A stretch of 49,869 nt of DNA from Thermoproteota archaeon (GTDB lineage Archaea; Thermoproteota; EX4484-205; JAAOZP01). The notes under the pieces are model-generated. The model did no database searches. It was not told the DNA's origin and saw only the letters and a program-made list of their open reading frames with translations. The DNA is taken from contig JBNAVT010000014.1 in assembly GCA_049700215.1 (NCBI GenBank), positions 1-49,869 on the forward strand, written 5' to 3'. Shown piece after piece: positions 22,667 through 49,363 of the stretch; within the stretch, counting starts at the first letter, position 1, and each line of letters begins with the position of its first letter. A program made the position numbers and the translations under genes.

Positions 22667-22810
22667 TTGAAAGCTTCAGTAAGATGGTGCAGCGTCTGCA
22701 ACGTGCTGCTCCTCGGAGAGAAACGCGACGTGTGTGGAGACAAGGGTTTTCATTTAAAGACTAATGGGAAGACTGATTTAAGACCTTTTTTCGAAGAAGA
22801 GAGAAAGCTA
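22667..22810 (+). pseudogene. N-terminal fragment of an archaeal PAPS-reductase-family (Zn-ribbon/PUA/ferredoxin) gene
   Basis: WCSVCNVLLLGEKRDVCG...DLRPFF resembles the family N-terminus WC..CNVPLL...C..CG...D.RPAF, with C>R and P>L decay. Similarity ends at the GC palindrome. Confidence 0.65.
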
Positions 22811-22819
22811 GCGCGCGCT
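22809..22819. repeat. Junction palindrome copy 1, TAGCGCGCGCT
   Basis: Read directly; AGCGCGCGCT is self-complementary; lies at the end of the PAPS-reductase-like N-fragment. Confidence 0.85.
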
Positions 22820-22912
22820 CAAATCCCACCTCCGCATTCTCCTCATAATACCGGCATAAACCATGTTGTGGCATGTCATTAAACCGTTAGGTTTTAATAT
22901 GGTTGCTGCGAG

Positions 22913-23467
22913 ATGGTTGCTCGATTAGTCTTGGTTAGCAGGTTCGAGTCAGTGAGAGTTTTGGCGTCGAGAATCGTTTACAGTAAGCATGGCTTTACTG
23001 TTGTTGAAGACACATTGGGTTTTGCCGATGGATCAACCTATGAATACATATATTTTAAAAGTAGCGGGACCGTTGCTGTGGCTGCTTTCGCCGAAGACAA
23101 TAAGATTATTCTAACGAAGCAGTATCGTCATCCTCTTCGGAAAATAGTTTACGACTTGCCTGGAGGCGGCGTCAAGGCTGGGGAAACTCCTATGCAAGCC
23201 GCTTTAAGGGAACTTGAGGAAGAAACGGGCTATACCGCGGAGAAGCTTGAATGGATAGGACGATTCAGTCGTGGTCCAAGCACGGAAGCGGTTACGGACC
23301 TCTTCTCGGCTAAGGCGAGGAGAAAAGGTGTTTTCGACTCTGCGGAGATAGTAGGAGTAGAGCTGGTAGATTTTAATCAACTTGTGCAGAAGGTTCTTGA
23401 CGGAGAATGCTTCGACGCTGCATTAAGTATCGCTACCCTAATCATTCTGGCTAAGAAACTTGTATAA
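22913..23467 (+). CDS. NUDIX hydrolase (ADP-ribose pyrophosphatase-like)
   Basis: KQYRHP and Nudix box PGGGVKAGETPMQAALRELEEETGY. The true start may be TTG 22931. Confidence 0.92.
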   Translation: MVARLVLVSRFESVRVLASRIVYSKHGFTVVEDTLGFADGSTYEYIYFKSSGTVAVAAFAEDNKIILTKQYRHPLRKIVYDLPGGGVKAGETPMQAALRELEEETGYTAEKLEWIGRFSRGPSTEAVTDLFSAKARRKGVFDSAEIVGVELVDFNQLVQKVLDGECFDAALSIATLIILAKKLV

Positions 23468-23491
23468 GTCCTTTTACACAGTAATAGGCCG

Positions 23492-23503
23492 TAGCGCGCG
23501 CTA
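23492..23503. repeat. Junction palindrome copy 2, TAGCGCGCGCTA
   Basis: Perfect 12-bp palindrome immediately before the ferredoxin-like gene remnant. Confidence 0.85.
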
Positions 23504-23504
23504 A

Positions 23505-23702
23505 TATAGGAATAGAAAAGTAATTAGCGTTGTTTTCAGAGCAGCATACTGTTTAGGATGCGGTTCTTGCGAGGTTTGGTGACCGCAAGATGCCTTGTTC
23601 CTAGATGAAGACGGGAAGGTTCATGTGGATGAAACCATGTGCAAAGGATGTGAAACCTGTATGGAGAAATGTCCAGTAGTCGAGTTTCTCCTCCTGTTCT
23701 GA
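23505..23702 (+). pseudogene. C-terminal 2x[4Fe-4S] ferredoxin-domain remnant (tail of the PAPS-reductase-family gene)
   Basis: Not in ORF track. Translates YRNRKVISVVFRAAYCLGCGSCEVW*PQDALFLDEDGKVHVDETMCKGCETCMEKCPVVEFLLLF*: two CxxCxxCxxxCP motifs, the first with TGA (23580-23582) at its fourth Cys; no start codon at its 5' end. Confidence 0.75.
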
Positions 23703-23753
23703 AATCTGCAGGCCCACTTATGGTGTTGCATGCCTAGAATTGCACTTGGACAC

Positions 23754-23771
23754 GGAATAACTTTTTATTCC
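23754..23771. promoter_or_regulatory. Inverted repeat GGAATAA-CTTT-TTATTCC overlapping the transketolase TATA-like box
   Basis: 7-bp arms read directly, ending ~21 nt upstream of ATG 23793. Confidence 0.4.
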
Positions 23772-23792
23772 TCTGATTGAGTTGTTCCCTTC

Positions 23793-25721
23793 ATGAATTC
23801 TCCTGGGAGATGGATATCGGATGAAGACCTTGAAAAGCTAAGAGAAATAGGCAGAATCGCGCGAGGAGATATAATTAAGATGACAACTCTCGCCGCCTCA
23901 GGACACCCCGGAGGATCCATGTCCAGTATCGACATTTATCTTACTCTCTTCTCTTTCGCAAGAGTCAAGCCTAAAGAGCCCTGCTGGCCGGCTAGGGACA
24001 GGATAGTCGTAAGCCACGGTCATACTTCTCCAGGTGTTTACGCTGCCTTAGGCAGGCTCGGGTTCTTCGACATTGATGAAGCGATAGCCACTTTCAGGCT
24101 TGCCGGCAGCCGTTTCGAGGGTCATGTGGAGAGATGCGTCCCAGGGGTGGAATGGTCCACTGGGAACCTTGGCCAAGGGCTCTCTGCCGGATGCGGCTTC
24201 GCCGTCGCAGGAAGGATTAGAGGCGTGGACTACCATGTTTTCGTCACTATGAGCGACGCAGAGCAGGCTAAGGGACAGGTGGCGGAGGCCAGGAGGTTCA
24301 TCCATAAGTATGGTTTTTCAAACATTACTGTCATAGTCGACTACAATGAGAGGCAGATAAGTGGTAAGACGTATGAGGTGATGCCGGTTAACATTAAGGA
24401 GGGGTATGTGTCAGACGGCTGGAGAGTTGTTGAGACGGATGGTCACGATTTTAAAGCTCTGCGAAGCGCGTTGGACGAGGCTGTGACCGACGGTTCTCCA
24501 ACAGCCATAATCGCTCGAACAGTAATGGGGAAGGGGGTTTCCTTCATGGAGGGCAATGAGGAGTACCACGGTAGACCGTTGAAAATAGACGAGTATAAGA
24601 AGGCTGTTCTGGAGCTAGGTGTTGAGGATGACCTGGACAAGTATAGGGCGTTGAGAAACAGACTCGCCTCAGAGCTTAAAAGTTCACGCCGCAAGGCTTA
24701 CGAATTATGCTCGGAAACAGTAACCCTTAAGCCGGGGGTGCCGAGAACATACCGGGCTGGAAGCCAGGTGGAAACCAGGCAGGCTTTCGGCAATGCTTTA
24801 ATCGACCTTGCTGAAGCCCAGGGGGTAGAGAAACCGTTAATCGCTGTTTTTGACTGCGACCTGGCGGAGTCCGTCAGGACGGTGGAGTTCGCAAAGAAAT
24901 TCCCCGGCAATTTCTTCCAAGCCGGTGTTCAGGAGCACACCACGGCGACTATTGCAGGGGCAGCGTCAATCCAGGGGGTTGTATCCTTCTTCGCGGACTT
25001 CGGGGTTTTCGGCGTTGACGAGACCTATAACCAGCATAGGCTTAACGATATTAACCATACGAACCTTAAGGTTGTTGTTACACACTGTGGTTTAAACGTC
25101 GGCGAAGACGGGAAGACTCACCACTGCATTGATTACGTGGGTGTTTTCAGGAACCTTTACGGCTTCAGGGTTATAGTGCCTGCTGACGCTAATCAGACTG
25201 ACAGGGCTACGAGGTTCATTGCGTCGACACCCGGAAACTTCCTGCTCGCCGTAGGGAGGTCGAAGCTACCAGTAATCACCGATGAGGCCGGTAAAGAGGT
25301 GTTTGCGGGAAACTACGTTTTCAAGTATGGTAGGGCAGACGTTTTGAGGAGCGGCGGGGATGCTGCAATATTCACCATGGGCTCAATAGCTCACAAGGCT
25401 GTCTCAGCCTGGGAGAGGCTGAGAGATATGGGTGTCAACGTTATGGTTGTTAATGTTTCCAGTCCTCTCGAGATTGACGAGAAAGTGTTGGAGGAGGCTG
25501 CTAAAACAGGCAGGATTGTAACCTACGAGGATCATAATGTTAACACTGGGCTGGGCTCTTCCGTCTCACAGGCTATTGCTGAGCTTGGCTACAGTGTTAG
25601 AATAAAACGGTTGGGAATCCGTGAGTACGGCGCCTCTGGGGCGTTTGAAGACCTTTACAGAATGGCGGGGTTGGATGAGGATTCGCTGGTTGAAGCCGTT
25701 ATGAAACTTGTCCGCAGCTAA
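23793..25721 (+). CDS. tkt: Transketolase, single-chain (fused N- and C-terminal domains)
   Basis: SGHPGGSMS, DRIVVSHGH, STGNLGQG, TPP-site variant SDAEQAKG, DLAES, GEDGKTH, TYEDHN. Confidence 0.9.
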   Translation: MNSPGRWISDEDLEKLREIGRIARGDIIKMTTLAASGHPGGSMSSIDIYLTLFSFARVKPKEPCWPARDRIVVSHGHTSPGVYAALGRLGFFDIDEAIATFRLAGSRFEGHVERCVPGVEWSTGNLGQGLSAGCGFAVAGRIRGVDYHVFVTMSDAEQAKGQVAEARRFIHKYGFSNITVIVDYNERQISGKTYEVMPVNIKEGYVSDGWRVVETDGHDFKALRSALDEAVTDGSPTAIIARTVMGKGVSFMEGNEEYHGRPLKIDEYKKAVLELGVEDDLDKYRALRNRLASELKSSRRKAYELCSETVTLKPGVPRTYRAGSQVETRQAFGNALIDLAEAQGVEKPLIAVFDCDLAESVRTVEFAKKFPGNFFQAGVQEHTTATIAGAASIQGVVSFFADFGVFGVDETYNQHRLNDINHTNLKVVVTHCGLNVGEDGKTHHCIDYVGVFRNLYGFRVIVPADANQTDRATRFIASTPGNFLLAVGRSKLPVITDEAGKEVFAGNYVFKYGRADVLRSGGDAAIFTMGSIAHKAVSAWERLRDMGVNVMVVNVSSPLEIDEKVLEEAAKTGRIVTYEDHNVNTGLGSSVSQAIAELGYSVRIKRLGIREYGASGAFEDLYRMAGLDEDSLVEAVMKLVRS

Positions 25722-25850
25722 GCAAATGAGGGTTGCAGAGTAGAAGTATCCTAGACCTTCAGGGCTCTGAAAAACCGGTTGGCAGCGGGCTCGTGAGCCT
25801 TTCTATCGCCGTTAAGAATAAATGTTTCTCCTCGTCTTGCATACTGGTGT

Positions 25851-27134
25851 ATGAGGGTTCAGGACCTGGTGTGTTTCATACCGGTGGGTGGTCAAGCTAA
25901 AAGGCTGAGGCCTCTGTCCCACGATGTTTCCAAGCCGTGTGTAAGGTTTCTCAACAGGCCTCTGATAGAATTTTCAATGATCGCCTTGGCCGAGCAGGGC
26001 GTTAGGAATTTCATATTCGGGGAAATGGGCTATACTAATTATGCTAATCTTTTCGACCAGTATGGGGAGGGTATTGGCTTCTCAGCCAAATATAGGATTG
26101 AGCCTAGGGTCCATATTAAGCATCAGCCTAATCTTGATGATCTGGGAAGCGCCGACTCATACCGTATAAACATGGATTACTACGATATTCGTAGACCCGT
26201 GATTGTAGTGCAGGGTGATAACCTGTTTAACATTGATCTGGAGGACTTCGTCAGAAAACATGAGGAGAGGAATGCTGTAATGAGCATCGCATTAACAAGG
26301 GTGGAGGACGTTGAGAAGTATGGTGTTGCAGAGCTTGAAGGGGATTATAGGATTAAGCGTTTCGTGGAAAAGCCTAGGCCTGGGGAGGCTCCAAGTAAGC
26401 TTGCAAACGCTGGAATATACCTCTTGTCCCCGGAGATGAGAAGCATAGTGAGCAGCGAAGAGTTGCTTAAGATTAGGAACGAGAGGAATAGGCTTGACTT
26501 CGGGTACGACTTAATACCGTATCTTGTAGATAATGGTTTTCCGGTTTACGGCTACGAAATCCCAGTCTGGTTTGACATCGGTTCTCCTGAAAAATATCTG
26601 GAAGCCATGGTTAATGTTCTCAGAGGAGCGTTAGACATCAGGATAACGGAGGAGAGAATTGTTCCCGGCAGGAATATCTGGGTTCAAGGGTATAGTGAAG
26701 AATCGATGAAAAGAAGGGAGGAAATCGTTAGAAAGCATAGGGAGAACAGGCTTGGCTTAGAGGGTGCAGTGTTAATCGGGCGGCATACGAGAATAGGCGA
26801 CTACTCTACAATCACCGATTCCTCGATAGATAATTTCTGCATTATAGGTGAACACGTAGCTATTGAAAGGTCCGCGATTATGGATGCGGCAAAAATCGGC
26901 GACTATGCACGCATATATGACAGCATTATCGGTAGAAAAGTCGTGATCGAATCCTCGCAGGGAAACCCGACTAGCATAGAGTCTTTTTCAACTATTGGAA
27001 ACTCCGTCAGGATACGTGAGGGCTGCAGGCTCGTGAACACTAGGGTGAACCCTGGCCTGATTCTCCCTCCCGGCATGGTTTATAAAGACAAGTTTCTCCA
27101 AACCTATGAGGATGTTGTTAGAATGGCGGAGTAA
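25851..27134 (+). CDS. NDP-sugar pyrophosphorylase (glucose-1-phosphate adenylyltransferase-like) with C-terminal left-handed beta-helix
   Basis: GGQAKRLRPLS..VSKP, QGDN, YGVA..RFVEKP, ANAGIY, DFGYDLIP, WFDIG; hexapeptide repeats. Confidence 0.88.
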   Translation: MRVQDLVCFIPVGGQAKRLRPLSHDVSKPCVRFLNRPLIEFSMIALAEQGVRNFIFGEMGYTNYANLFDQYGEGIGFSAKYRIEPRVHIKHQPNLDDLGSADSYRINMDYYDIRRPVIVVQGDNLFNIDLEDFVRKHEERNAVMSIALTRVEDVEKYGVAELEGDYRIKRFVEKPRPGEAPSKLANAGIYLLSPEMRSIVSSEELLKIRNERNRLDFGYDLIPYLVDNGFPVYGYEIPVWFDIGSPEKYLEAMVNVLRGALDIRITEERIVPGRNIWVQGYSEESMKRREEIVRKHRENRLGLEGAVLIGRHTRIGDYSTITDSSIDNFCIIGEHVAIERSAIMDAAKIGDYARIYDSIIGRKVVIESSQGNPTSIESFSTIGNSVRIREGCRLVNTRVNPGLILPPGMVYKDKFLQTYEDVVRMAE

Positions 27135-27207
27135 GAGCGCAGCTCTAGCGGCATCTAAGCATTTTTAGACCGGCTTTTTAGAATGGCTGCTTCCACTACG
27201 TTAAGAC

Positions 27208-28437
27208 TTATTTGGCGAGCGACTCGTATATCTTGATAGTCTGCTGAGCCACCTTGTCCCAGGTGAAGTAGTTTAAAACCCTCTTCCTGCCGTTTTCACC
27301 CATTTTAAGCGCTTTATCTTTATCCGACAGTATCAGGTTGACGCCCCACGCTATGTCTACAGGATCATTACCATTTATGTGGACACCGTTTTGATCCGGC
27401 CCGCTGCTTATCACTTGCTCCCTGAACCCGCATACTCCACTCGCGCCAACGACGATCGGCTTCTTCATCGCCATCGCCTCAAGCGAAACTATTCCAAACG
27501 GCTCGTAGATGCTTGGAAAAACGCACAGGTCCGCTGCCGCGTAATGCAGGATGCGTTCGTTCTCCGGTATAAACTCATACCTGTAGTAAACGTTGTTTGA
27601 AAGCCCCAGGCGGCTCGTCAACTCCTCAATATCCTTCTGCTCTTCTCCTCTTCCAAGTATCACCAGCTTCGTATTGGGGTGCTCCTTGAGGATCAGGGGC
27701 ATTGCTTGAATCAGGTTTCTAACGCCCTTAACCCAGGTCAACCTGCCAATGAAAAGCAGCATATTCTCTTCTCTACTTATATTATACTTCCTTCTAACTG
27801 CCTCTATGTCTTCAGGCCTGCATTTATCAGGATTGTAAACGTTAGCATCCACACCGTTCCAGACTACGCTTATCTTATCCTCAGGCCAACCGTGCTTAAC
27901 CAGGTCCTCTTTCATCGCGTAGCTTACTGTAATTATCCTCTCCGCCGTTGAAGCAGCCTTCTCCTCTAAGTATTTTATTACTTGGGATCCGTCTCCAGTC
28001 CTACCCCATTCCGTTGAATGCACATGGAAAACCATTGGTATGGTTGTGTGTTTTCTCGATATTAACGCCCCTATGCAGCTCAACCAGTCGTGAAACGAGA
28101 TTATGTCGATTTTAGTCTCCCTAATCTCTGCAACAAGGTCTGACGCAGTCATCACGTTGTAGATGAAAATATCGCTGAAGAACCTTATGTAGGTGCCCCA
28201 GTGCTTCAAATCCTCAGTCACTATAGGGGCGAAAACGTCGCTCGCATCCACCGTCGGGTATCTCCTGATTTCAACGCCTCCAGTTATTTCTCTTAATTGA
28301 GTTGCTCCCCTATGCATGGTGAAAACAGTAACATCGTGCCCAAGCTTAACGAACTCCTTTGTAATGTACTGCGCGTATGTTCCAAGCCCCCCCACGAGAT
28401 ACGGTGGGTATTCGTACACCATGAACGCTATCTTCAA
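27208..28437 (-). CDS. GT4 glycosyltransferase (probable alpha-glucan/glycogen synthase type)
   Basis: EYPPYLVGGLG, HDWL, HSTEWGR, GRLTWVKG, PSIYEPFGIVSLEAMA. Confidence 0.9.
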   Translation of the reverse strand: MKIAFMVYEYPPYLVGGLGTYAQYITKEFVKLGHDVTVFTMHRGATQLREITGGVEIRRYPTVDASDVFAPIVTEDLKHWGTYIRFFSDIFIYNVMTASDLVAEIRETKIDIISFHDWLSCIGALISRKHTTIPMVFHVHSTEWGRTGDGSQVIKYLEEKAASTAERIITVSYAMKEDLVKHGWPEDKISVVWNGVDANVYNPDKCRPEDIEAVRRKYNISREENMLLFIGRLTWVKGVRNLIQAMPLILKEHPNTKLVILGRGEEQKDIEELTSRLGLSNNVYYRYEFIPENERILHYAAADLCVFPSIYEPFGIVSLEAMAMKKPIVVGASGVCGFREQVISSGPDQNGVHINGNDPVDIAWGVNLILSDKDKALKMGENGRKRVLNYFTWDKVAQQTIKIYESLAK

Positions 28438-28523
28438 GGGGTGTTCTTCACTAAACGTGTAATTATCCTTTATATGTTTTTAACTTCTCAAGATTTATGT
28501 AGTCGTCCAGCGACGTATTCATT

Positions 28524-29564
28524 ATGATTAACCCGCCTTCCGGCGAGGTGGAAAGCGAGGTGAGGTTCGACGATTTCACTGGCAGGATTGTTATAGTTGC
28601 GAGAGGAAGACGGAAAAGGCCTCACTTCTACCGTGAGGAATTTAAAGAGGATGATAAGGAGTGCCCGTTCTGCCCCGGTCGCGAGAGCAAGACTCCTAAG
28701 GCAAGTCTTCTATACATTTCGGAGGATGGGCAAAGCGTTCTGAAGACTTTTGACGAGAATGGGCTTAGGAGGAGCGACTGGTCTGTTAGGGTTTTCCCCA
28801 ACATGTTTCCCGCGCTTAGCACTAGGGTAGGGTCCTCCGAGCCAGGATGCTTTAGCCCGTATGGTTATCACGAGGTTGTTGTAGAGAATCCGAATCACCT
28901 CTGGAGCTATGAGACGGCTGAGCCTAGGAGTATTGAGCTGCCTCTACTAGCACTACTGGACAGGGGGAGATTCATGGAGTCTGACGAGAATGTTAAGCAT
29001 GTTGCTGTTTTCAAGAATCACGGTAAGGAGGCTGGAGCCTCCATCGCGCATCCTCATTACCAGATTATAGGCGGCTCATTTGTTCCTCCTTTAGTTTCAA
29101 AAGAGTTAGAATCTTTCTCAAGGATTACACGGGTTCGTGGTGAATGCTATTTTTGCGCGTTGATCACGGGGGCTCAGGAAGGCGGTCGGCTTGTGTCAGC
29201 TGGTGAACGCTTTACGGTTATAACTCCTTTTGCAAGCATCTTCCCGTATGAGTGCTGGATTGTGCCGAAGCGTCACACCAGCTCTTTCCTTGATTCCCGT
29301 GAGGAGGAGATCAGTGATCTTGCGCTAATCTTTAGAGAGCTTTTTTCCGCCTACAAAATCGTGTTGGGCGATTTTTCATTCAACATTGTTTTTCATTCAA
29401 GGCCTGTGGGTTACAGGGATTTTCACTGGCACATCGAGGTGTATCCGCGTGTTGCTGTACACGCCGGCTTCGAACTCGGGTCTGGCGCGTTTATAAACAT
29501 CGTATCGCCGGAGGAGGCTGCTTTTCAACTGCGTCAAGCTCTCCACGCGTCTAACAATGTTTAA
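28524..29564 (+). CDS. galT: Galactose-1-phosphate uridylyltransferase family (GalT-like)
   Basis: CPFCPG, RVFPNMFPAL, HEVVVE, FKNHG..AGASIAHPHYQ (HxHxQ), HWHIE. Confidence 0.88.
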   Translation: MINPPSGEVESEVRFDDFTGRIVIVARGRRKRPHFYREEFKEDDKECPFCPGRESKTPKASLLYISEDGQSVLKTFDENGLRRSDWSVRVFPNMFPALSTRVGSSEPGCFSPYGYHEVVVENPNHLWSYETAEPRSIELPLLALLDRGRFMESDENVKHVAVFKNHGKEAGASIAHPHYQIIGGSFVPPLVSKELESFSRITRVRGECYFCALITGAQEGGRLVSAGERFTVITPFASIFPYECWIVPKRHTSSFLDSREEEISDLALIFRELFSAYKIVLGDFSFNIVFHSRPVGYRDFHWHIEVYPRVAVHAGFELGSGAFINIVSPEEAAFQLRQALHASNNV

Positions 29565-30826: not shown

Positions 30827-30850
30827 CCTTAATACGGGGCGGGAAGACTT

Positions 30851-30866
30851 TATTTAAGCTTAAATA
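30851..30866. promoter_or_regulatory. Perfect 16-bp palindrome TATTTAAGCTTAAATA; probable bidirectional TATA region or operator
   Basis: Centred in the ~60-bp gap between divergent GH57 (start 30826) and wHTH (start 30887/30893). Confidence 0.55.
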
Positions 30867-30886
30867 GAACGCCTGAAATAAACGTA

Positions 30887-31162: not shown

Positions 31163-31777
31163 TTGAGGATCGTTCTACTTACTACTGAATTTCCTCCCCG
31201 CGTAGTAGGCGAGCTCTCGAACCTTGTCAGTTTTATCGCAAGATCTCTTTCGAATAAGGGGTTTGATGTTAATGTCGTGGCCTTCGACGACTGGAGGAGC
31301 GGGTTTGAGGTGAAGGGCGGCATAAAGGTATACTATGTTTCCAACAAGGTTTCGTCTCACGTTAACCCTTTCACCTGGGCATCAAGCCTAAGCTGCGAGT
31401 ACACTAGAATACTGGCCGACCTGCTGTGGGAGCAGCCTAGTATTGATATAATTCATGCTTTCGAATGGAGTTCTGCCTTACCGTTGATTTCATTAAGGGA
31501 GGCTGTTCCAACCCCCTACGTTCAAAGCTTCCTGTCTCTAGAGGAGCTCAGGTCTCATTCTAATCTCTCCCTCCTAGGCCAGACTATTAAATGGGTTGAA
31601 TCCTTCTCTGCGAGTCTTGCAGACCGCATCATGGCGCACTCGGTGGCAACCTACAGTATGATTAGAGCATTGTATCCCTGGTGTGTTAAAAAGCTGCACC
31701 TAGTAGATTTCAACGATACGAATGCTGTTGAAGAATTAATTAGGGTTTACGAGGAGGTTTCTGAGAGGCGTGGATAA
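31163..31777 (+). CDS. Stand-alone GT4 N-terminal domain protein
   Basis: TEFPPRVVGEL, DIIHAFEW. Lacks the C-terminal donor-binding domain (no EPFG motif) but keeps the terminal helix ELIRVYEEV. Confidence 0.75.
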   Translation: MRIVLLTTEFPPRVVGELSNLVSFIARSLSNKGFDVNVVAFDDWRSGFEVKGGIKVYYVSNKVSSHVNPFTWASSLSCEYTRILADLLWEQPSIDIIHAFEWSSALPLISLREAVPTPYVQSFLSLEELRSHSNLSLLGQTIKWVESFSASLADRIMAHSVATYSMIRALYPWCVKKLHLVDFNDTNAVEELIRVYEEVSERRG

Positions 31778-33002
31778 GCTAAGGGTTCTTATGTTGTCTT
31801 GGGAGTATCCTCCACGGGTAATCGGGGGGTTAGCTACTCACGTCAAGCATCTTACGGAGGAGCTGCGGAACATCGGTGTAGAAATAATCTTGCTCACGTG
31901 CAATTATCCAGGGGCTCCTGAGACGGAGAGGCTTGGAAACATGACGGTGAAAAGGGTTGAATCCTATACTGCGCCGACGTCGGATTTCGCATCCTGGGTC
32001 CTCCTTATGAACATCAATATGGAGCGCGAGGCTGTGAAAACAGTTAAAGAATGGGGCCGTGTCGACATTGTTCACGCGCACGACTGGCTTGTTGCTAAGC
32101 CAGCGATATCGATAAAACACCTGTGCAGGATCCCGCTCATATCCACTATACACTCAACCGAGCAGGGCAGGCGGCGCGGGTTACACACTGATTACCAAAG
32201 AATGATACACCAGATAGAATGGTGGCTAACCTACGAGTCTTGGAAAGTGGTTTGCTGCAGCAATTACATGAAGGAGGAGGTGGTGAGGTTCTTCAACACG
32301 CCTCCTGACAAGATACTAGTGATACCGAATGGTGTGGATAAAAACAAGTTCGACGGCTATTCTTGCAAGAGGGACTTCAGGTCGCGGTACGCTGCAGACC
32401 AGGAGAAAATGATTCTTTACGTTGGGAGGCTCGTCCCGGAGAAGGGGGTAGACGTGCTCTTAGGTGCGATGCCGAGTGTGCTGAATTCTCATCCCGAAGC
32501 CAAGCTGGTGGTTGTTGGAGAAGGGTATTATAAAGAGGAGCTGATGCGGATTGCGGGGCAATTAAGCATTTTCCCCAAGGTGCATTTCACCGGCTACGTG
32601 GATGACGAGACTCTCAGACGGCTCTATAAGTGTGCTTCAGTAGCCGTATTCCCAAGTCTATACGAGCCTTTCGGCATAGTTGCTTTAGAGGCGATGGCTT
32701 CCGGGGTTCCAGTAATAGTTTCCAATGTAGGGGGTCTCTCAGAGATCGTTGAGGACGATGTAAACGGCCTGAAGGTGGAGGCTAACAATTCAGACTCGTT
32801 GGCGCGCGCGATCTCTTACTTGCTGGATAATCCTGACGCGGCGGAGCGTTTAAAGCAGAATGCTTTTAAAAAGGTTGCTGAGACGTATGATTGGAGGTCT
32901 ATTGCTGAGAGAACTAGGGCTCTTTACCTGAAGACGCTTGAGGAAGCGAGGGTAAACCCGTGGATGAGGGGAAACCTGCCGGCTGCGTCGGAAGCACTTT
33001 AG
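31770..33002 (+). CDS. GT4 glycosyltransferase
   Basis: WEYPPRVIGGL, HAHDWL, HSTEQGR, GRLVPEKG, PSLYEPFGIVALEAMA. Confidence 0.92.
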   Translation: MDKLRVLMLSWEYPPRVIGGLATHVKHLTEELRNIGVEIILLTCNYPGAPETERLGNMTVKRVESYTAPTSDFASWVLLMNINMEREAVKTVKEWGRVDIVHAHDWLVAKPAISIKHLCRIPLISTIHSTEQGRRRGLHTDYQRMIHQIEWWLTYESWKVVCCSNYMKEEVVRFFNTPPDKILVIPNGVDKNKFDGYSCKRDFRSRYAADQEKMILYVGRLVPEKGVDVLLGAMPSVLNSHPEAKLVVVGEGYYKEELMRIAGQLSIFPKVHFTGYVDDETLRRLYKCASVAVFPSLYEPFGIVALEAMASGVPVIVSNVGGLSEIVEDDVNGLKVEANNSDSLARAISYLLDNPDAAERLKQNAFKKVAETYDWRSIAERTRALYLKTLEEARVNPWMRGNLPAASEAL

Positions 33003-38585: not shown

Positions 38586-38586
38586 G

Positions 38587-40915: not shown

Positions 40916-40926
40916 CTCTAACAGTT

Positions 40927-42273: not shown

Positions 42274-42292
42274 CTTCCTGGTCTTAAGGTGG

Positions 42293-43306
42293 TTAACCGC
42301 CTTTTAAATCTAAGAAGGCTGATGGCAGAGGGATATCCGTTATTCTGAGCAAGCCTGTTCTCGCCCCTAAAACTTTAGGGATAAGGTTCACTACTACTGC
42401 GGCGGTGGCGGTGTCGCCGGCAATACCTGTGCTCCTCCACTTAACCGGTGGCTCTCCCTCTATCACTACTTCTTCAAACTCCTCCCCACCGGCTTCAGCT
42501 AGAAGCTCAACCCTGACGAGCTCTTTTTCCCCGGCATAGCCGATTCCGTAGCCGTGCACTCCCGAGACTCTTCCCGGCGTTATTTCAAAGTATTGTGTTT
42601 TCAACGGTTTCGTCGACACTATTGGCTCCTGTTTTTCAACTATCCTAGTAAGGTTTACGCCGAGGGCGGACGCGATTAGGTCGACGGATTCACCATAACC
42701 TATGTGCGCCGTTATCTCGCCGCTCTCCATTTTACGCGTGAACTCCTGGACGCTTAAGGCAAGCCCATACTTCTTTTGGAACGAGAGTCTTCTTTTCCCA
42801 GCGTCTAAAGACCTTGTGACTCTTAAACGGTTTATTCTCGCGCATACCAGTGTCATGAGTATGGGCAGGGCGTCGAAAACAAACCCAGGGTTTACGCCGG
42901 CACCTATGATTGAAACATTGTTTTCCCTAGCCATTCTGTCTATTTCCGTGGCCAGCTTAGGATAACGATACCAGGGATTAGCCAGTGTTTCTGAAGTCGA
43001 GATTAAATCCGTCCCGGCTTCTATACACTTAACTATCTGCGGATAAATTTTCTCCAAATGCGAGGAGGTTGCGTGGAGCACAATATCGGCTCCGCTTCTC
43101 CTCAGGATTTCAGCCGCTTCCGACTCTCTTGAGATAGTGACGCCAATCCTACTGTTGACTCCAATCACTTCGCCAACATCCCTGCCTATTTTAGAATCAT
43201 CGACCTCGAAAGCCGCTACTAGTTCAAGGCTCTTTCTCTCCAAAACTTTTCTGGCTATAAGCATTCCGATGGGGCCTAATCCATAGACTGCCACCCTGAC
43301 CAGCAT
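42293..43306 (-). CDS. 2,4-diaminopentanoate dehydrogenase (Ord) / DapB-like NAD(P)-dependent oxidoreductase
   Basis: YGLGPIG, HATSS, ISTSE, GVNPGF, HIGYGES, GDTATAA. Confidence 0.8.
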   Translation of the reverse strand: MLVRVAVYGLGPIGMLIARKVLERKSLELVAAFEVDDSKIGRDVGEVIGVNSRIGVTISRESEAAEILRRSGADIVLHATSSHLEKIYPQIVKCIEAGTDLISTSETLANPWYRYPKLATEIDRMARENNVSIIGAGVNPGFVFDALPILMTLVCARINRLRVTRSLDAGKRRLSFQKKYGLALSVQEFTRKMESGEITAHIGYGESVDLIASALGVNLTRIVEKQEPIVSTKPLKTQYFEITPGRVSGVHGYGIGYAGEKELVRVELLAEAGGEEFEEVVIEGEPPVKWRSTGIAGDTATAAVVVNLIPKVLGARTGLLRITDIPLPSAFLDLKGG

Positions 43307-43395
43307 GCTTTACCACAACCCTTAATAGATATTTAAGGGTTCGTGAACCATGATTCAACGCTTAAATACGAATTCCTAGGAATGGGTTCAGCGTA

Positions 43396-44967
43396 ATGAT
43401 GAAAACTGTCTCCTCTTGGATTGATTTCATCAGCTCCGGTCCTGGAGCAAGTAGGCTGGCAGAGATATATGGGCCGGGTTTCGTTGAAGAAAGGAGAAGA
43501 GTGGTTCTGAAGGTGTTGAAGACGTTTGGTGAAACATATGGTTTTGAAAGAAAGGTGATTATAGTCCGGGCTCCGGGTAGGGTGAACATGATGGGTAGGC
43601 ACGTGGATCACAGGGGTGGGTTCGTAAACCCGATGGTGATTCCGAGGGAAGTCATAATGGTTGCCGAGGGAAGAGGAGACTCCTGCATTGAGATTCATAA
43701 TGCAGAGGAGAAGTTTGAATCTGGAAAATTTGAAATAGGAGAAGAATTACCTGGCAAGAAAATATCTACACTAGATGAATGGAGGAGATGGACTCAGGAA
43801 AACCTTGAGAAGAAGCCTGAGAGGGAGAGGAAATCCTGGATAAACTATGTTAAGTCAGTATGCTACTTGCAGAATGTTTACACTGGGGAGGGGTCGCACG
43901 GGAAAAAGTTGCTGGGGGCGAACATTGTCTGCTATGGTGACATACCCCGGTCCGCAGGGCTTTCCTCATCGTCAGCTTTAGTCGTCGCCACATTCTTGAC
44001 GGTTTCAAACCTGAATGGTCTTGAAATCCCGAGGGAGAAGATGGTTGAATACACGGGCATCGGGGAATGGTACGTGGGAACCAGGGGTGGATGGGGGGAT
44101 CAGGCGGCAATGCTCTTCTCGAAAAGAGGCTTCGTAAGCCACATAGGCTTCTTCCCATTCCGAATATCCTACATACCGTTTCCAAGCGGGGTCAGCATTA
44201 TTCTTTGCAACTCCTTCGTTGCGGCAAGCAAGATGACGGGGGCCAGGAGTATTTTCAACGAGAAGGTTTCTACCTACGAGTTCGGGTTTGAACTAATGAA
44301 GAAGTTTAACCCGAGGCTAAAAGGCTTCGAGTATTTGAGGGATATTAATCCTGAGAATTTTGAGACTGCTGAAATATACCGGATGGTCAAATCCCTGCCT
44401 GAGAGAATAAGCAGGAGCGAGCTTAGAAGCCTCCTTCCGGAGAAAGAGGAATGGTTGAACAAGATGTTTAAGGAGCATGAGGAGCCGAGGGAGGGCTATG
44501 ATTTGAGGGGAGTATGCTTATTCGGGATTTCAGAGTGTGAACGGAGCAGGAGAACCCGGTGGATCCTACCCGGGGACGTGGAGCTTTTCGGAAGGCTGAT
44601 GAATATTTCTCATGACGGGGATAGGGTGGTTAAGTCAGGCTTGAAATGGCGTGTCAGGGTGACTGATGAATACCTGGAGAGGCTTACCCGTTCTGAAGGC
44701 GAGACTAGGCTGGAGTTTCAGTCAGGCTACTACGGGTGTGGGGCTGAGGAAACTGATTTCCTCGTCGACACCGCGTTAAAAGTCCCGGGTACCATAGGGG
44801 CGTCAATAGTTGGTGCTGGCCTAGGGGGTTGTGTAGCGATCCTCGCGTATACGGGTGCTGTGAATGAGATTGTAGATAGGCTGGAGAGAGACTATTATTG
44901 TGGCGAGAGCAAGCCGAAAAGCGGGGTCATGCTTGTCAGCCCTGTCGAGGGTGCTTGCCTAATTTGA
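43396..44967 (+). CDS. GHMP kinase, galactokinase family
   Basis: APGRVNMMGRHVDHRGG, IPRSAGLSSSSA, GGWGDQ, GAGLGGC. Confidence 0.88.
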   Translation: MMKTVSSWIDFISSGPGASRLAEIYGPGFVEERRRVVLKVLKTFGETYGFERKVIIVRAPGRVNMMGRHVDHRGGFVNPMVIPREVIMVAEGRGDSCIEIHNAEEKFESGKFEIGEELPGKKISTLDEWRRWTQENLEKKPERERKSWINYVKSVCYLQNVYTGEGSHGKKLLGANIVCYGDIPRSAGLSSSSALVVATFLTVSNLNGLEIPREKMVEYTGIGEWYVGTRGGWGDQAAMLFSKRGFVSHIGFFPFRISYIPFPSGVSIILCNSFVAASKMTGARSIFNEKVSTYEFGFELMKKFNPRLKGFEYLRDINPENFETAEIYRMVKSLPERISRSELRSLLPEKEEWLNKMFKEHEEPREGYDLRGVCLFGISECERSRRTRWILPGDVELFGRLMNISHDGDRVVKSGLKWRVRVTDEYLERLTRSEGETRLEFQSGYYGCGAEETDFLVDTALKVPGTIGASIVGAGLGGCVAILAYTGAVNEIVDRLERDYYCGESKPKSGVMLVSPVEGACLI

Positions 44968-45015
44968 AAACCTATTCCTCAAACTTTAAAAAAGCTCTTT
45001 CTTCCCAGGTTCAGC

Positions 45016-47349
45016 ATGCGTGAGGAGTCTGAGGGAAAGATTAGGGAGAATACTGTTGCGATTGTTCCTGCAGGCGGCTCAGGCTTCAGGTCTACACCGC
45101 TCTGGACTAGGTTGGACCCGTATACCGACACTATTTCGAAGCCTGCGATGAGAGACCTCTTCTGGAGAAAAACGTATTTAGACACTATATTCGAAACTAT
45201 AATGCGCTCCGGCCTGGTTAAGTCGATTCTCCTGTCAGTCGGCAGAAGAGTAGGGGGGAGCGTTGAAGAGTGCAGGGATGAAAGGGACCTAATAGATCTT
45301 AAGGCACTGATGGATTTGAAAGCGGTTGTGGCGAAATGGAGAGGTGTTGAGATTTTCTTCGACAATCCTGGCGACAAGGGTACTGGTGCTGCGGCAACAA
45401 GCGTGGAGGGTAAGAAACTGGTTAGGGAGAGCGGTGCGAAATACGTTTTCATCTACTATGGGGATGTGCCGACTGTACCTCCCGAAGAAATAAGGAACAT
45501 TATAAGGAGCCACGTGTCTTCTGGCGCGAAGATCACTGTAGTCACTTGCGACAAGGGTGATCCATTCATGTACGGGAGAATAGTCAGGTACCCGAAGAAG
45601 GTTTTAGGCGTTGTTGAGGAGAAGGATGTTAAGGATGGGAAGTCGCTAGAGATAAACAGGATGCTTAAAAGCGGAGAGCTGATCGCTGTTAGGCTTCCCG
45701 AGGTTGACACAGGGAAATACGGCGAATGGGCTTCATACGTGTTCCTCAGGAAGCAGGATGTTGACAAGGCTGGCGGCGAGATCTGCATATACCACCCCAT
45801 AAGAGAGGCTCTCCCGGAGGGGAAAATAGTTATTTCAAGAAAACAGCTTGAGGAGAGACGGGTTAAGCTAGACGGGAGGGCCCTGCTTTTCCACCCTATG
45901 TCAGACGAGTTCCTAGATATAAAGGAGCAGGATGAAATCGGGGTTACTGCGGAGCAGAGGAGGAGCATCGGTTCTCTGGAGGTTAACCTTCTGGACTTCA
46001 GGGTTTCAACAGACTATCTTAACGCGATAAGGGAGAGGAACACGGGGCTGATGGTGATGAACGCCGAGGTTTATCTTAACGTGATAAGGGATGTTGACGC
46101 GCCCAACTATGGGCGGGTTTTAAGAGGCGATTCGGAGATTGTGGTGCCTAACCCTGATGTTTTCTCTCTAAAACCCGGTGAGAGGAGACACGGGTTATCC
46201 AGGGAGGAGCTGCTCTCGATAAGCGAGTGCAAGAGGATTGGTCCAAGCCCGCCCGGAGTATACGTTTTAGAGAGGCACGCTGGAGGCGAGTACTTCCTTC
46301 CAGAGGTCTCTAAGGAGGCTGTTTCAAAGGGGGAGAGGGTCAACATATATTTGCTTAAGGGTGAGGAGGGTGTTGGCGAGGGATACGATTATAGGAGTGA
46401 GGCTAGGGTTGGGGCGATGCTCCAGTCTAGGAGAATGGCCAGGATGCTTGTGGAAAAGGGGTGCGTCATGGAGGGGGAGGCTGTAATAACCGTTGGCGGG
46501 GATTTTGACGCGAGCAGGGTTGGGAGGGGGACTGTTTTCACAGGCAGGGTTGACATAAGGGGGAGCGTAACGATAGGCGAGGGCTCCCGCATAAGCAACT
46601 CCTTCATTATCGCTCTGCCCCCAGGTGTTGCCAGCATTGGGAAAAACACTAGGATAATTGATTCCGTTATAGTTGGCTCAAATATTGGAGACAACGCTGT
46701 AGTGGAGAGGTGTGACGTCTATAAGGCTGAAGTTGATGCCTCAGCGTTTCTAAGGAATATGGTGGTCTGCTCGAAAAACGGTGAATCATACGTGGCGGTG
46801 AGGGAAGCCCCGGAGCTGGATCACGCCGGCCTGGAAGTGTTGGAGGGGCCTTCCCTGGAAGCGCTCGAGAAGATTTTCGGAGTTACTGTTGACCTGGGTG
46901 CAAGAATATACGTGGAGAGCAGGGTGAAGAGTTTTCTACGCGACATGATGATGGTTGCTGAAAAGGAGGGTGGCTTAAAGAAGTTTGACAAGAAGTTCAC
47001 TAAGCAGTTAAGGTCTCTAGCGTTCAGCGAGATACCCGGGCTACAAGAGTATAGTGATGTCCGCTTCTACGTTGGCGTCAATTCCTTTCTGAGCGGGGAA
47101 ATCGTTTTCAAGGGGGAGGTTCACGTCAAGCCCTGGTGCGTCATACACAACTCGATGATAGAGGAAAGCAGGGTTGAAAGGGGTGCTATAGTTTGGAACA
47201 GCATCCTGAAAAGATGCTTGGTTAACAGCTCGCTTGCGAAAAGGACGGTAATCGACAGGGAGAGCCTTAGCAGCATGGTTATTGACGAAGGGTGGAAATC
47301 ACCGGGGAGCGAATGGAAAAGCTTAATAATCTTTAAACACGGCGAGTAG
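45016..47349 (+). CDS. Enlarged GlmU-like sugar-phosphate nucleotidyltransferase with left-handed beta-helix domains
   Basis: VPAGGSGFR, KP, GTGAA, YGDVP, YGRIVR, ERNTG, EYFLPE; C-terminal hexapeptide repeats. Confidence 0.75.
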   Translation: MREESEGKIRENTVAIVPAGGSGFRSTPLWTRLDPYTDTISKPAMRDLFWRKTYLDTIFETIMRSGLVKSILLSVGRRVGGSVEECRDERDLIDLKALMDLKAVVAKWRGVEIFFDNPGDKGTGAAATSVEGKKLVRESGAKYVFIYYGDVPTVPPEEIRNIIRSHVSSGAKITVVTCDKGDPFMYGRIVRYPKKVLGVVEEKDVKDGKSLEINRMLKSGELIAVRLPEVDTGKYGEWASYVFLRKQDVDKAGGEICIYHPIREALPEGKIVISRKQLEERRVKLDGRALLFHPMSDEFLDIKEQDEIGVTAEQRRSIGSLEVNLLDFRVSTDYLNAIRERNTGLMVMNAEVYLNVIRDVDAPNYGRVLRGDSEIVVPNPDVFSLKPGERRHGLSREELLSISECKRIGPSPPGVYVLERHAGGEYFLPEVSKEAVSKGERVNIYLLKGEEGVGEGYDYRSEARVGAMLQSRRMARMLVEKGCVMEGEAVITVGGDFDASRVGRGTVFTGRVDIRGSVTIGEGSRISNSFIIALPPGVASIGKNTRIIDSVIVGSNIGDNAVVERCDVYKAEVDASAFLRNMVVCSKNGESYVAVREAPELDHAGLEVLEGPSLEALEKIFGVTVDLGARIYVESRVKSFLRDMMMVAEKEGGLKKFDKKFTKQLRSLAFSEIPGLQEYSDVRFYVGVNSFLSGEIVFKGEVHVKPWCVIHNSMIEESRVERGAIVWNSILKRCLVNSSLAKRTVIDRESLSSMVIDEGWKSPGSEWKSLIIFKHGE

Positions 47350-47366
47350 CATCCGGAGGATTAGAA

Positions 47367-48956
47367 ATGCCAGAATACTCTGTTTCACCAGAGGGGATTA
47401 AATACAGGATTCCCACTAGGGATGAGTTGAAGGCTGAGCTTGCAAGCATAAGCAGGGTTGTGGAGGATCAGCGGGCTAAGGGGAGGGAGATAGTTACAGT
47501 CATGGGGCTGGGTTTCGTCGGAGCAGTCATGGCTGCAGTCGTCGCGGACGCGAAGGATTCTCCATACTTTGTGCTCGGCTACCAGAGGCCTTCGAAAAGA
47601 TCCTACTGGAAGATTCCCTACATAAACTCGGGTAAGCCTCCCGTCAGCGCGGAGGATCCTGAGATACCTGAAATATTCAGGAGGACCGTTATCGAGAAGA
47701 AGACCCTGATGGCTACGGGCTGCGAAGAGTCGCTGGGGCTTGCTGACGTAATAGTGGTCGACATACAGCTGGACGCTGCTAAGCCTATTTTCGGAAAAGC
47801 TGAAGCAGGATACGTTGAGCTGGATGCTTTCAAAGCCGGCTGCAGAACAATAGGGAGATACATGAGGGAGGATGCACTCGTACTGGTTGAAACCACCGTG
47901 CCCCCCGGAACCTGTGAGAGAATCGTCCTCCCAATACTGAGGGAGGAGAGGGAGAAAAGGGGCATAACTAAGCCGCCGTATCTCGCTCACTCTTACGAAA
48001 GGGTCATGCCCGGTAGGAAATACGTCAGCTCGATAAGGGACTTTTGGAGAACCTGGGCTGGGATAGACAGGGAGAGTGCTGAGCGTGCAAGGAGGTTCCT
48101 TTCCCGCGTGATAACCTATCCCCTCTACGAGGCTGAAAACACAACAGCCTCTGAAGTCGCGAAGGTACTGGAGAACTCCTACAGGGCTGTTAACATTGCT
48201 TTCATCTACGATTGGACGCTTAGGGCTGAGGAAATAGGTATAGACCTTTGGAAGGTTCTGCCCGGGATAAGGGTTCGCCCAACCCACAGCAACATTATGA
48301 ACCCTGGGCTGGGCGTAGGCGGATACTGTTTAACGAAGGACAGCGTGCTGGCTAACTGGGCTTTCAAGGAAATATTTGGATGCAGCGATGGTGTGCCATA
48401 CACTATAGAAGCGATAAACATAAACGATAAAATGCCCCTTCACACCGCCGACCTTGTTGCGGACGCTCTTAAGGAGAGCGGGAGGAATATTGAGGGTTCA
48501 ACCGTAGCGGTTCTCGGAGCCTCCTACCTTGCTGACATAGGTGATACTCGCCACTCGCCTTCAGAGATCCTGATAAGAAGGCTTAGGGAAATGGGTGCAG
48601 AAGTAAGGGTTCACGACCCCTATGTGAAGTCCTGGCCGGAGTTCGCTCAGCAGGATGAGGACGAGTTCTCGCTTGCAAAGCAATTCAGGAACCAGGAGGA
48701 CTTGAAGAATTTGAGTGTTGAGCAGGACCTTAATAAGGTTGTTAAGGGTGCTGACGCCATAGTCTTCGCCGTTAGGCACAGCCATTACCTTCAGCTTGAG
48801 CCTAAGGAGGTTCTAAGGATCAACGGGGGTACTCCAGCAGTCGTGGATGCTTTCAACATAATCGATGACGACAAGATAATCGAGTACTTGAGGAACGGGT
48901 GTGCTGTCAGAGGAGTTGGAAAGGGACATATAAAGAGGCTTAAACAGCTAGTATAG
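47367..48956 (+). CDS. Nucleotide-sugar dehydrogenase (UDP-glucose/GDP-mannose dehydrogenase family)
   Basis: GLGFVG, ETTVPPGT, ERVMPG, KVLENSYRAVNIA, GVGGYCLTKD (catalytic Cys), DTRHSP, HDPYV. Confidence 0.92.
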   Translation: MPEYSVSPEGIKYRIPTRDELKAELASISRVVEDQRAKGREIVTVMGLGFVGAVMAAVVADAKDSPYFVLGYQRPSKRSYWKIPYINSGKPPVSAEDPEIPEIFRRTVIEKKTLMATGCEESLGLADVIVVDIQLDAAKPIFGKAEAGYVELDAFKAGCRTIGRYMREDALVLVETTVPPGTCERIVLPILREEREKRGITKPPYLAHSYERVMPGRKYVSSIRDFWRTWAGIDRESAERARRFLSRVITYPLYEAENTTASEVAKVLENSYRAVNIAFIYDWTLRAEEIGIDLWKVLPGIRVRPTHSNIMNPGLGVGGYCLTKDSVLANWAFKEIFGCSDGVPYTIEAININDKMPLHTADLVADALKESGRNIEGSTVAVLGASYLADIGDTRHSPSEILIRRLREMGAEVRVHDPYVKSWPEFAQQDEDEFSLAKQFRNQEDLKNLSVEQDLNKVVKGADAIVFAVRHSHYLQLEPKEVLRINGGTPAVVDAFNIIDDDKIIEYLRNGCAVRGVGKGHIKRLKQLV

Positions 48957-49004
48957 GATCTTTCAAATAACCTTTATAAATGACTATTCAAGGGGCAGGA
49001 ACAT

Positions 49005-49350
49005 ATGAATTCGCATGAAAGACTCCATACCACGTTTTTGCATAAGGAACCCGACAAGGTTCCGATATTTGAGCAGGGCATTGCCTCTAATGTTGCTTCG
49101 GAAATTCTCAAAAGACCAGCCTTTACAGGCTCAGGTGGTACGGGATGGTTTGAATTAGCGAAATATCTTTACGAGGGACGACGAGATTTCTTAGTAAGGC
49201 GGATCGGTGAAGATACTGTTGAACTATATAATAAGCTTGATATGGATCTTGTTCGTGGTCGCCTAGTACCATTAAAGGGGCCCTCCAAGAAATTGGATAA
49301 GTTAACATATTACTATGAAGATGATTACGGTTTCTGGTCCATTAGACGAT
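49005..49350 (+). pseudogene. 5' fragment of a URO-D/methyltransferase-superfamily gene
   Basis: MNSHERLHTTFLHKEPDKVP N-terminal signature (compare LTSRERVLMALKHKEADRIP of 33052-34134). TATA-like TTTATAAA at 48973-48980. Truncated at ~115 aa by the GC palindrome. Confidence 0.7.
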
Positions 49351-49363
49351 TAGCGCGCGCGCT
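49351..49363. repeat. Junction palindrome copy 3, TAGCGCGCGCGCT
   Basis: One GC unit longer than copies 1 and 2; lies precisely between two unrelated gene fragments. Confidence 0.85.

Follow-up and report, generated by a model that had tools for sequence, protein, structure and literature searches.

The 49,869-nucleotide contig JBNAVT010000014.1 of a Thermoproteota archaeon (assembly GCA_049700215.1), analysed in full and hereafter called the window, carries three copies of a short palindrome of alternating G and C, A(GC)4T or a form with five GC units, each of which cuts a recognisable gene, and this palindrome suggests that DNA ends are joined by a mechanism not described before. Comparison with related genomes showed that the motif is added de novo at joins rather than inherited from the genes around it. 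We favour, with a probability of roughly 0.5, the reading that A(GC)4T (sometimes with n≥5) would be the scar of DNA breakage and rejoining by way of a self-complementary GC linker. The genome under study (G000) comprises 2.09 Mb in 85 contigs, of which the window is contig C14, and it was set against a genus set of 17 genomes, itself included, in which carriers hold at least 6 copies of the motif and non-carriers at most 3. The whole evidence base is comparative and computational, and gene calls are approximations from long open reading frames (ORFs).

The three sites of the window are a tiny sample of the 264 maximal runs of (GC)≥4 found in G000 (204 have four GC units, 53 have five, and 7 have more). 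Their consensus is tA(GC)4-5Ta, beyond which no position is conserved. Maximal runs number 3891 for (GC)2, 273 for (GC)3, 204 for (GC)4, 53 for (GC)5, and 2 for (GC)6; the repeat number has a sharp peak at n=4 and a tail up to n=9, a series that argues for a discrete unit at n=4 rather than slippage noise. The 8-mer GCGCGCGC ranks second among all G000 8-mers, with 339 copies compared with a mean of 32 per 8-mer, and the 10-mer AGCGCGCGCT is present in 118 copies compared with a single copy of the reversed control word. A and T flank 155 of the 264 runs, and about half of these sites have T at -2 and about half have A at +2, the two being mutually independent. Past ±2 nt of the motif, neither conservation nor an inverted repeat nor a duplication was detected, and mirror symmetry of the G000 flanks (3.08 of 12 positions matching) was close to the shuffled value of 3.19. 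An exception to these symmetry-free flanks is found in the sister genome G002, where one motif copy forms the middle of a perfect palindrome of 32 bp (L070:6138-6169; ATAAGGAGGTTA-GCGCGCGC-TAACCTCCTTAT).

The placement of the sites in G000 was far from random. Adjacent sites are clustered, 77 of 204 pairs lying no more than 1 kb apart compared with 24 expected, and there are arrays of motif copies at 66-1500-bp spacing. Only 2 of the 155 A..T-flanked sites lie inside long-ORF interiors, compared with 57% of 3000 random positions. Measured by the longest open frame that abuts them, the sites have a median of 52 codons (155 at random positions), and 54% of sites have no 80-codon open frame abutting either side (10% of random positions). 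Among the 25 of 82 Pfam families viewed, the genes neighbouring the motif included PIN, HEPN, AAA ATPase, and glycosidase families as well as housekeeping ones, with no nuclease or polymerase prominent. The sequence-only reading, which had proposed the motif as an end-joining or recombination scar from the window alone, had expected a genome-wide count to be telling, and the sites proved to be clustered, located almost only outside ORF interiors, and, at the loci compared, linked to breakpoints.

Within the window, 0.02 chance matches to the motif would be expected, and three were reached in none of 100 shuffles. The positions that the sequence-only reading had given (22809, 23492, and 49351) were correct, and so was its description of them: the homology of the PAPS-reductase N-terminus, of the ferredoxin tail, and of the URO-D/GH31 pair ends at the motif, the flanks are unrelated and free of duplications and inverted repeats past ±2 nt, and the number of GC units varies around a prevailing n=4. 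Its further proposal that the linker was added at the join was likewise supported by intact counterparts, since the corresponding sister-species or donor positions, namely the genes of the G008 type, the sister gaps of 17-70 bp, and the donor GH31 genes, lack the motif at all three sites.

The first two sites interrupt a PAPS-reductase/ferredoxin gene that stands intact between GH31 and transketolase in the sister genomes G008, G002, G007, and G013; in G008 it encodes 583 aa, with a PF01507 (PAPS_reduct) match at 2.6e-37 and a 2x[4Fe-4S] Fer4 tail. What is left of it in the window begins with an N-terminal remnant of ~47 codons (22667-22808, forward strand), whose DNA is 76-89% identical to the beginning of the intact gene in sister species. 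The remnant is followed by motif copy 1, TA(GC)4T (TAGCGCGCGCT, 22809-22819; motif copies carry no strand), by a captured segment of 672 bp (22820-23491, forward strand) holding a complete NUDIX gene (22913-23467; PF00293, 8e-19), and by motif copy 2 (TAGCGCGCGCT at 23492-23502, within the 12-bp palindrome TAGCGCGCGCTA at 23492-23503), after which comes the remnant of the C-terminal 2x[4Fe-4S] ferredoxin tail (23504-23699, forward strand; PF14697, E 1.7e-11 over 23505-23699 with a TGA read through). Homology to G008, G002, G007, G013, and G009 ends at 22809 and restarts at ~23504-23510, and ~1.39 kb of the gene body is thereby exchanged for motif, 672 bp, and motif. The TGA (23580-23582) occupies the place of the fourth Cys codon in the first CxxCxxCxxxCP motif of the tail, which marks the tail as a pseudogene, a stranded gene end in decay. 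The PAPS-reductase/ferredoxin gene is wholly absent from G011 and G005, and G008 and G002 have different insertions beside it, with the motif at one border there too. No DNA homologue of the NUDIX segment was found at this locus among 16 genus genomes, and the nearest relative of the NUDIX protein (73% aa identity), in another Bathyarchaeia metagenome-assembled genome, is without flanking motifs. A contig from a second study matches 22787-22973 without differences and spans site 1, with a left arm of just 22 nt; contigs of that study have gaps over 22983-23528, and site 2 is covered by the likely source run alone.

The third site lies in a composite insert of ~826 bp (48968-49793, no strand assigned) that is absent from G002, G007, and G008, where 17-70 bp stand in its place; G002 is 96% identical hereabouts, and G009 has a different insert of 1.15 kb at this position. 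The insert contains an N-terminal fragment of a URO-D-family gene (115 codons, 49005-49350, forward strand) that is cut at the motif, then motif copy 3, TA(GC)5T (TAGCGCGCGCGCT, 49351-49363), and then the last ~105 codons of a GH31 gene (49364-49680, forward strand; ORF 49384-49659, PF21365, 4.4e-28). Positions 49005-49349 match the N-termini of 382-390-aa PF01208 proteins with 74% identity and 100% coverage; a Pfam scan of the UroD fragment alone returned no match, and a search of the genome-contig collection returned no relative. The GH31 fragment has 83-85% DNA identity to the 3' end of full-length Bathyarchaeia GH31 genes in L081-L083, with homology beginning at 49363/49364, the base right after the motif, and these full-length genes do not carry the motif at the cut point. 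The fragment is foreign to the GH31 gene that G000 itself possesses (20237-22618), and G000 holds no other copy of it. Just past the fragment, at 49698-49707, lies a degenerate motif copy, AGCGTGCGCT, with one C-to-T change. The last 55 bases of the window (49815-49869) are identical to G000:C12:1-55, an assembly-graph branch just past the insert, and there are hints that cells with and without the insert may coexist in the sample.

The densest comparison was made between G000 and one sister genome, G002, at 39 loci chosen around the G002 motifs. In G002, 15 of 64 sites were located within 15 nt of a homology breakpoint, compared with 1.5 expected from random placement within these same motif-centred loci; 8 were spanned by homology (33 expected), and 41 fell in DNA without a G000 counterpart (29 expected). 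From the G000 viewpoint, 6 of 28 sites were at breakpoints (0.7 expected) and 1 was spanned (20 expected). Individual events could be followed base by base. A clean gain of 10 bp in G002 (L070:4322) turned CCT|TCC into CCT-TAGCGCGCGC-TCC, and relative to G000 and G008, the sequences TTCG and TCCT and a 20-mer were each exchanged for the 10-mer; ~55 bp were exchanged for AAGCGCGCGCTT, and losses in such deletion-plus-motif events ranged from 4 to 55 bp. On a larger scale, 949 bp from the middle of a gene were exchanged for TAGCGCGCGCTA in G002, with neither G000 endpoint carrying the motif, and DNA found on separate G000 contigs was precisely joined by the motif. No target-site duplication was seen at any of these events, including the clean 10-bp insertion. 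In 5 of the 6 clean joins on the right-hand side, the T that follows the run belonged to the native flank, and in 2 left-hand joins the A was not native, which indicates that the added piece is (GC)4, to which A/T may or may not belong, and that microhomology of a single base may often serve at the joins.

The same comparison revealed how rapidly the copies come and go. Of the 9 motif sites that fall within 96.5 kb aligned between G002 and G000, none was intact in both genomes and 3 had degenerate orthologous copies; 6 of the 9 were insertions or replacements, and 3 differed by substitutions or a 1-nt indel. Copies with one mismatch are biased genome-wide toward transitions, mostly C-to-T and G-to-A. 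The 10-mer numbers 88, 70, 33, 32, 18, 16, and 6 copies in seven sister species and 0 in seven others, compared with 0-3 copies of the reversed control word in genus genomes, and sites are hardly ever common to species of ~90% DNA identity. Taken as aligned, these genomes showed the motif to be associated with deletions, replacements, and captured fragments, and to turn over and decay. A fourth GCGCGCGC in the window, a (GC)4.5 run at 32802-32810, is not a scar: it lies inside an intact glycosyltransferase ORF (31770-33002), where it encodes L-A-R-A-I, and four sister species read ttgtcccgcgcg there, from which it follows that the run arose by two substitutions (Ser to Ala) and not by insertion. 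Elsewhere in the genome, G000:C10:347-3223 is one frame with an aspartate-kinase-like start of ~120 aa followed by a multi-copy surface-protein family; the switch at ~C10:716 has no GC motif and may be a real fusion or a misassembly.

In the favoured course of events, broken ends would receive a short self-complementary stretch of alternating GC, either added as a 3' tail or made de novo as a blunt A(GC)nT duplex and then ligated in, a route that would explain the purine start and the templated complement. Two ends would pair over 8 G:C base pairs, with gaps then filled and sealed; out-of-register pairing would yield n≥5, resection before joining would yield deletions, and stray fragments, including gene pieces from other strains, would be treated alike and captured with the motif on each side. 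The outcomes would be a bare 10-bp insertion, a small or large deletion with the motif, or fragment capture, and selection would confine most of the scars to intergenic DNA and dispensable genes, where they would decay by C-to-T transitions. The self-complementary splint already suggested by the sequence-only reading fits the independent half-junctions and the n=4 peak with its longer tail; as to its chemistry, we infer either tailing of the ends or the ligation of a palindromic oligonucleotide, the flanking A/T probably reflecting a purine start or one-base microhomology. The proposed writer of the linker would be AEP-X, a primase-like protein described below.

Several observations count against a joining mechanism of this kind. 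Not every join has a motif, for neither outer border of the 826-bp insert shows an intact copy. None of the 17 genomes of the genus had a match to Ku (PF02735), although the Bacillus subtilis positive control was detected, and the ATP ligase profile PF01068 had 1-3 matches in all 17, with two in most carriers and non-carriers alike; among Ku and ligase profiles, no dedicated joining machinery was visible in these genomes. Support for the window junctions comes from assembled contigs rather than reads. Furthermore, at L049 and on G000 contig C29, the motif follows the same left flank in both species and is followed by different right flanks, which would also fit recombination at existing copies.

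Site-specific recombination is the most substantial of the alternatives, although we regard it as rather unlikely: the palindrome would be a crossover site, segments with two copies would be excised, inverted, and re-integrated, and solo copies would be left after excision. Motif-bounded segments certainly exist, as in the NUDIX segment, the arrays, and the excess of pairs within 1 kb, and a ~960-bp motif-bounded G000 module stands in a different order in G002 and G008, with a neighbouring module inverted in G008; the shared left flank at L049 and C29 is of the same kind. This explanation fails on the new copies at L052, at L053, and at the window junctions, which arose where neither sister partner site had one. 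The donor genes of captured fragments also lack the motif at the cut, insertions are accompanied by deletions of variable length as in break repair, and no recombinase was linked to the sites, integrase and recombinase families not having been part of the search; to our knowledge, recombinase sites are far longer than 10-12 bp without flank conservation. Still less probable is a functional palindrome of the HIP or REP type, a binding site or structural signal that would arise by point mutation and be selected in fast-changing non-coding DNA. The scarcity of sites in ORF interiors, the 3 of 9 aligned sites that differ by substitutions or a 1-nt indel only, and the two-substitution origin of the 32802 run are all in keeping with it, but the other 6 aligned sites are insertions or replacements, breakpoint coincidence is exact and 10-fold above random placement in the same loci, and ORFs are interrupted in their middle (PAPS reductase, GH31, UroD, and the 949-bp deletion). 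Almost no site is common to ~90%-identical species, and C5 methyltransferases were not found in carriers: PF00145, the C5 family being the only one searched, was present only in the motif-free G001 and G004 and was rejected as the agent.

A footprint left by a cut-and-paste transposon with inverted termini beginning (A)GCGC, whose imprecise excision would produce deletions and filler, appears very unlikely. A footprint built from both element termini is palindromic by nature and varies in length with the repair register, as the peak at n=4 with a tail to 9 would suggest. However, self-BLAST of G000 revealed neither an element with such ends nor a high-identity family resembling insertion sequences; its repeats are surface-protein paralogues, and elements ending in the motif, which the sequence-only reading had contemplated, were not among them. 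No target-site duplication accompanies the clean insertion, captured fragments have the complete motif at both ends, and the copy number of TnpB does not follow the motif; the 14-mer TA(GC)5TA occurs in 36 viral contigs, but once in each, with at most 2 A(GC)≥4T per examined stretch. An artefact, whether a library-preparation linker or an assembly chimera, is the least credible account and in our view scarcely tenable. It would draw on the assembled-contig support of the window and on the location of 29 of 155 sites within 1 kb of contig ends (7.4% of random positions). Part of this enrichment is explained by an assembly-graph effect, since four contig ends are 53-54 nt away from a (GC)≥5 run, as would suit graph breaks at k=55. 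Against it stand the many species-level carriers, some with contigs of 280-900 kb, one (G105) a single-contig genome, and some from other habitats and projects, the 7 genus members without any copy, the avoidance of long open frames, unlike random chimeras, and the second-study contig identical across the left junction. The degenerate orthologous copies and their transition-biased decay are equally at odds with an artefact, and decaying copies that are rarely common to species indicate biology. As agents, we further rejected TnpB (PF07282), which is present in G011 (3 motif copies) and absent from G002 (70) and G009 (33), reverse transcriptase (PF00078; 0 of 5 carriers), Prim-Pol (PF09250; 2 of 5 carriers), ATP ligase (PF01068), with two matches in most carriers and most non-carriers, and a TGT-fold element, with weak matches and no pattern.

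The scar reading gains a candidate enzyme from a search for extra primase genes in G000, which revealed, beside the canonical 377-aa PriS, a small divergent archaeo-eukaryotic primase (AEP), here AEP-X, a PriS-like primase-polymerase paralogue of 273 aa (G000:C17:241-1059). AEP-X scores 32.2 bits against PF01896 (DNA_primase_S; curated cut-off 26.8). The catalytic motifs of AEPs are DxD (I), SGxGxH (II), and D (III), and residues D97, D99, S147, G151, H153, and D205 are invariant in 33 AEP-X sequences, all or nearly all of which also keep an HxH...CxxC cluster. Its predicted model (predicted local distance difference test 81.8, predicted template modelling (TM) score 0.81) matches archaeal PriS structures best (1g71, 9f28, and 5of3; TM 0.55-0.61, E 3e-10), in line with a profile match to replicative PriS (E 1e-12), and polymerases of non-homologous end joining (NHEJ) come lower in the list (5dmu and 2r9l/2irx/4mky; TM 0.50-0.53). 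By Pfam match, catalytic motifs, and predicted fold, AEP-X falls within the archaeo-eukaryotic primase superfamily. The family has 42 members in a database of 5.8 billion proteins, all annotated as hypothetical. In the genus, AEP-X always lies directly behind a second RadA paralogue, RadA2, and overlaps its 3' end; RadA2, which shares ~50% identity with canonical RadA, is missing from the non-carriers too. The G008 cluster at L161:639-4752 comprises Dpo4 (a Y-family polymerase), RadA2, AEP-X, and a HEPN/nucleotidyltransferase pair, with equivalents at the end of C59 and the start of C17 in G000. Distant AEP-X homologues (38-45% identity) in other Bathyarchaeia are without RadA2, and no conserved neighbours were found around them; at L194:6713-9395, a DEAD-box helicase and a Vsr-type mismatch endonuclease precede the gene, an arrangement that was observed at none of the other distant loci.

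The co-occurrence of AEP-X and the motif was shown at two levels. In the genus, full or remnant AEP-X was present in 7 of 8 carriers and 0 of 9 non-carriers (Fisher p = 4e-4, a value not corrected for ancestry). Full genes were found in G000, G008, G002, G007, G006, and G013, broken remnants only in G009, and none in the ten other genus genomes; there are many extra AEP-X fragments, two of which abut motif sites in G000. G011, which is without AEP-X and belongs to the low-motif group, nonetheless nests inside the carrier clade in the radA tree. Outside the genus, all 5 whole genomes with a distant AEP-X hold 16-74 copies of the exact 10-mer, compared with at least 16 copies in 6 of 384 non-genus genomes of a phylum sample, and alternating G/C runs of 8-10 nt number 73 in 193 kb around distant AEP-X genes compared with 0 in 126 kb of control loci. 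In these distant lineages, runs measure 8, 9, and 10 nt, both phases occur, and each flank can be A or T; the reversed word T(CG)4A, itself alternating, is also abundant in G285, G267, G057, G159, G300, and G023 of the phylum sample. Outside this genus, the motif unit seems to be less strictly phased.

From this association and the predicted fold, we infer that AEP-X could be the maker of the GC stretch. The fuller proposal that AEP-X writes a fixed GC linker, a Ku-independent and heat-stable splint that would join any ends and stitch stray DNA into the chromosome, is more tentative than the scar reading itself, and we would sooner doubt it than assert it. Quite apart from shared ancestry in the genus comparison, this proposal has to contend with its computational basis and with the five distant AEP-X genomes, which may be related to one another, AEP-X-free sisters lying outside the comparison. 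In the phylum sample, AEP-X is present in just 9 of the 401 genomes, and carriers without detectable AEP-X include G010 (16 copies), G389 (35), G105 (22), G395 (14), G363 (10), G285, and G351; G142 has an AEP-X pseudogene fragment only. The AEP-X search returned just PriS-type matches, in ORFs of 350-452 aa, in G389, G395, G105, G363, G285, G351, G267, and G159, and no match at all in G057. Conversely, G023 has a full AEP-X, but the 10-mer occurs only 3 times in it and the reversed word 9 times. All told, AEP-X predicts the motif well but is not the sole route to it or has been lost in some lineages. The sequence-only reading had considered the tailing activity of archaeal primases as a source of the linker. 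That suggestion now has a co-occurring PriS-like paralogue in its favour, which is an unproven candidate missing from some carriers; of the kinds of co-occurring genes that it had named, a primase paralogue, AEP-X, tracks the motif and ATP ligase copy number does not.

Several known systems resemble A(GC)4T in part. HIP1 repeats of cyanobacteria lie largely inside genes, spread by substitution, and are tied to orphan methyltransferases. Like A(GC)4T, HIP1 (GCGATCGC) is, according to the accessible portion of its description, a short perfect palindrome, at least ten-fold over-represented, lineage-restricted, and of unexplained origin; unlike HIP1, A(GC)4T avoids ORF interiors, comes mostly by insertion or replacement at breakpoints, and has no C5 methyltransferase found in its carriers. 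The accessible portion of the HIP1 paper (PMC4390886) mentions neither "GCGCGC" nor "archaea". The arrays of short segments in G000 recall NIME arrays. In such arrays, which are tied to genome rearrangement, a short repeat delimits every one of the short, variable segments, and both REP/BIME with RAYT and the dRS3/NIME elements of Neisseria are intergenic interspersed palindromes with hundreds of copies. REP/BIME elements have a conserved head and go with a Y1 (RAYT) transposase. REP/BIME and dRS3 are 20-40 nt long, imperfect, and targets or substrates of known transposases, unlike A(GC)4T, a perfect 10-12-mer with random flanks that is added at arbitrary break points. The accessible portion of the RepRanger paper (PMC12306157) has no GC-alternating or Bathyarchaeia entries.

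With the LigD PolDom of Mycobacterium and the NHEJ polymerase of Methanocella paludicola, AEP-X shares membership in the primase family and a match of its predicted model at TM 0.50-0.53. NHEJ AEPs work on double-strand breaks, where they bridge the ends and add nucleotides to them; what known NHEJ leaves is a few extra bases, templated or not, instead of a single fixed palindrome. AEP-X differs from them in being closer to replicative PriS, in genomes where Ku was not found among the 17 of the genus. Eukaryotes also place additional nucleotides at repaired breaks, as P and N nucleotides in V(D)J joining, as transposon excision footprints, and as telomeres formed de novo on broken ends. P nucleotides are palindromes that mirror the flank, footprints are palindromic as well, and in telomere healing a single, fixed repeat is added. 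The flanks of A(GC)4T, unlike those of P nucleotides, are without mirror symmetry, no element was found as for excision footprints, and no reverse transcriptase as for telomere healing was present in the 5 carriers searched. Thermophilic DNA polymerases reportedly synthesise palindromic repeats in vitro independently of template and primer. Such de novo synthesis, through hairpin or slippage elongation, offers an in vitro chemical precedent for an A(GC)nT oligonucleotide, although we know of no link between it and genome scars. Two works on this synthesis, Ogata & Miura 2000 and Liang et al. 2004, are cited in the accessible portion of PMC13061963. In none of the systems compared do a 10-bp palindrome of fixed sequence, its de novo addition at arbitrary breaks, and fragment capture come together, and our literature search found no described counterpart of the motif.

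These observations bear on the question of how most archaea join DNA ends without Ku and acquire foreign DNA without homology. The marks, of which there are 264 in G000 and tens in relatives, could reveal breaks, deletions, gene decay, and capture straight from genomes, and they offer a computational handle on recent rearrangements and horizontally acquired pieces in uncultured Bathyarchaeia and Brockarchaeota. If the enzyme link fails, the motif would still be an unexplained lineage-specific junction sequence. If AEP-X writes a defined linker, this would represent a new activity of the primase superfamily and a possible tool for tagging or bridging DNA ends, and if the fixed-linker reading is true, these archaea would possess a new route of double-strand-break repair that doubles as a means of gene capture.

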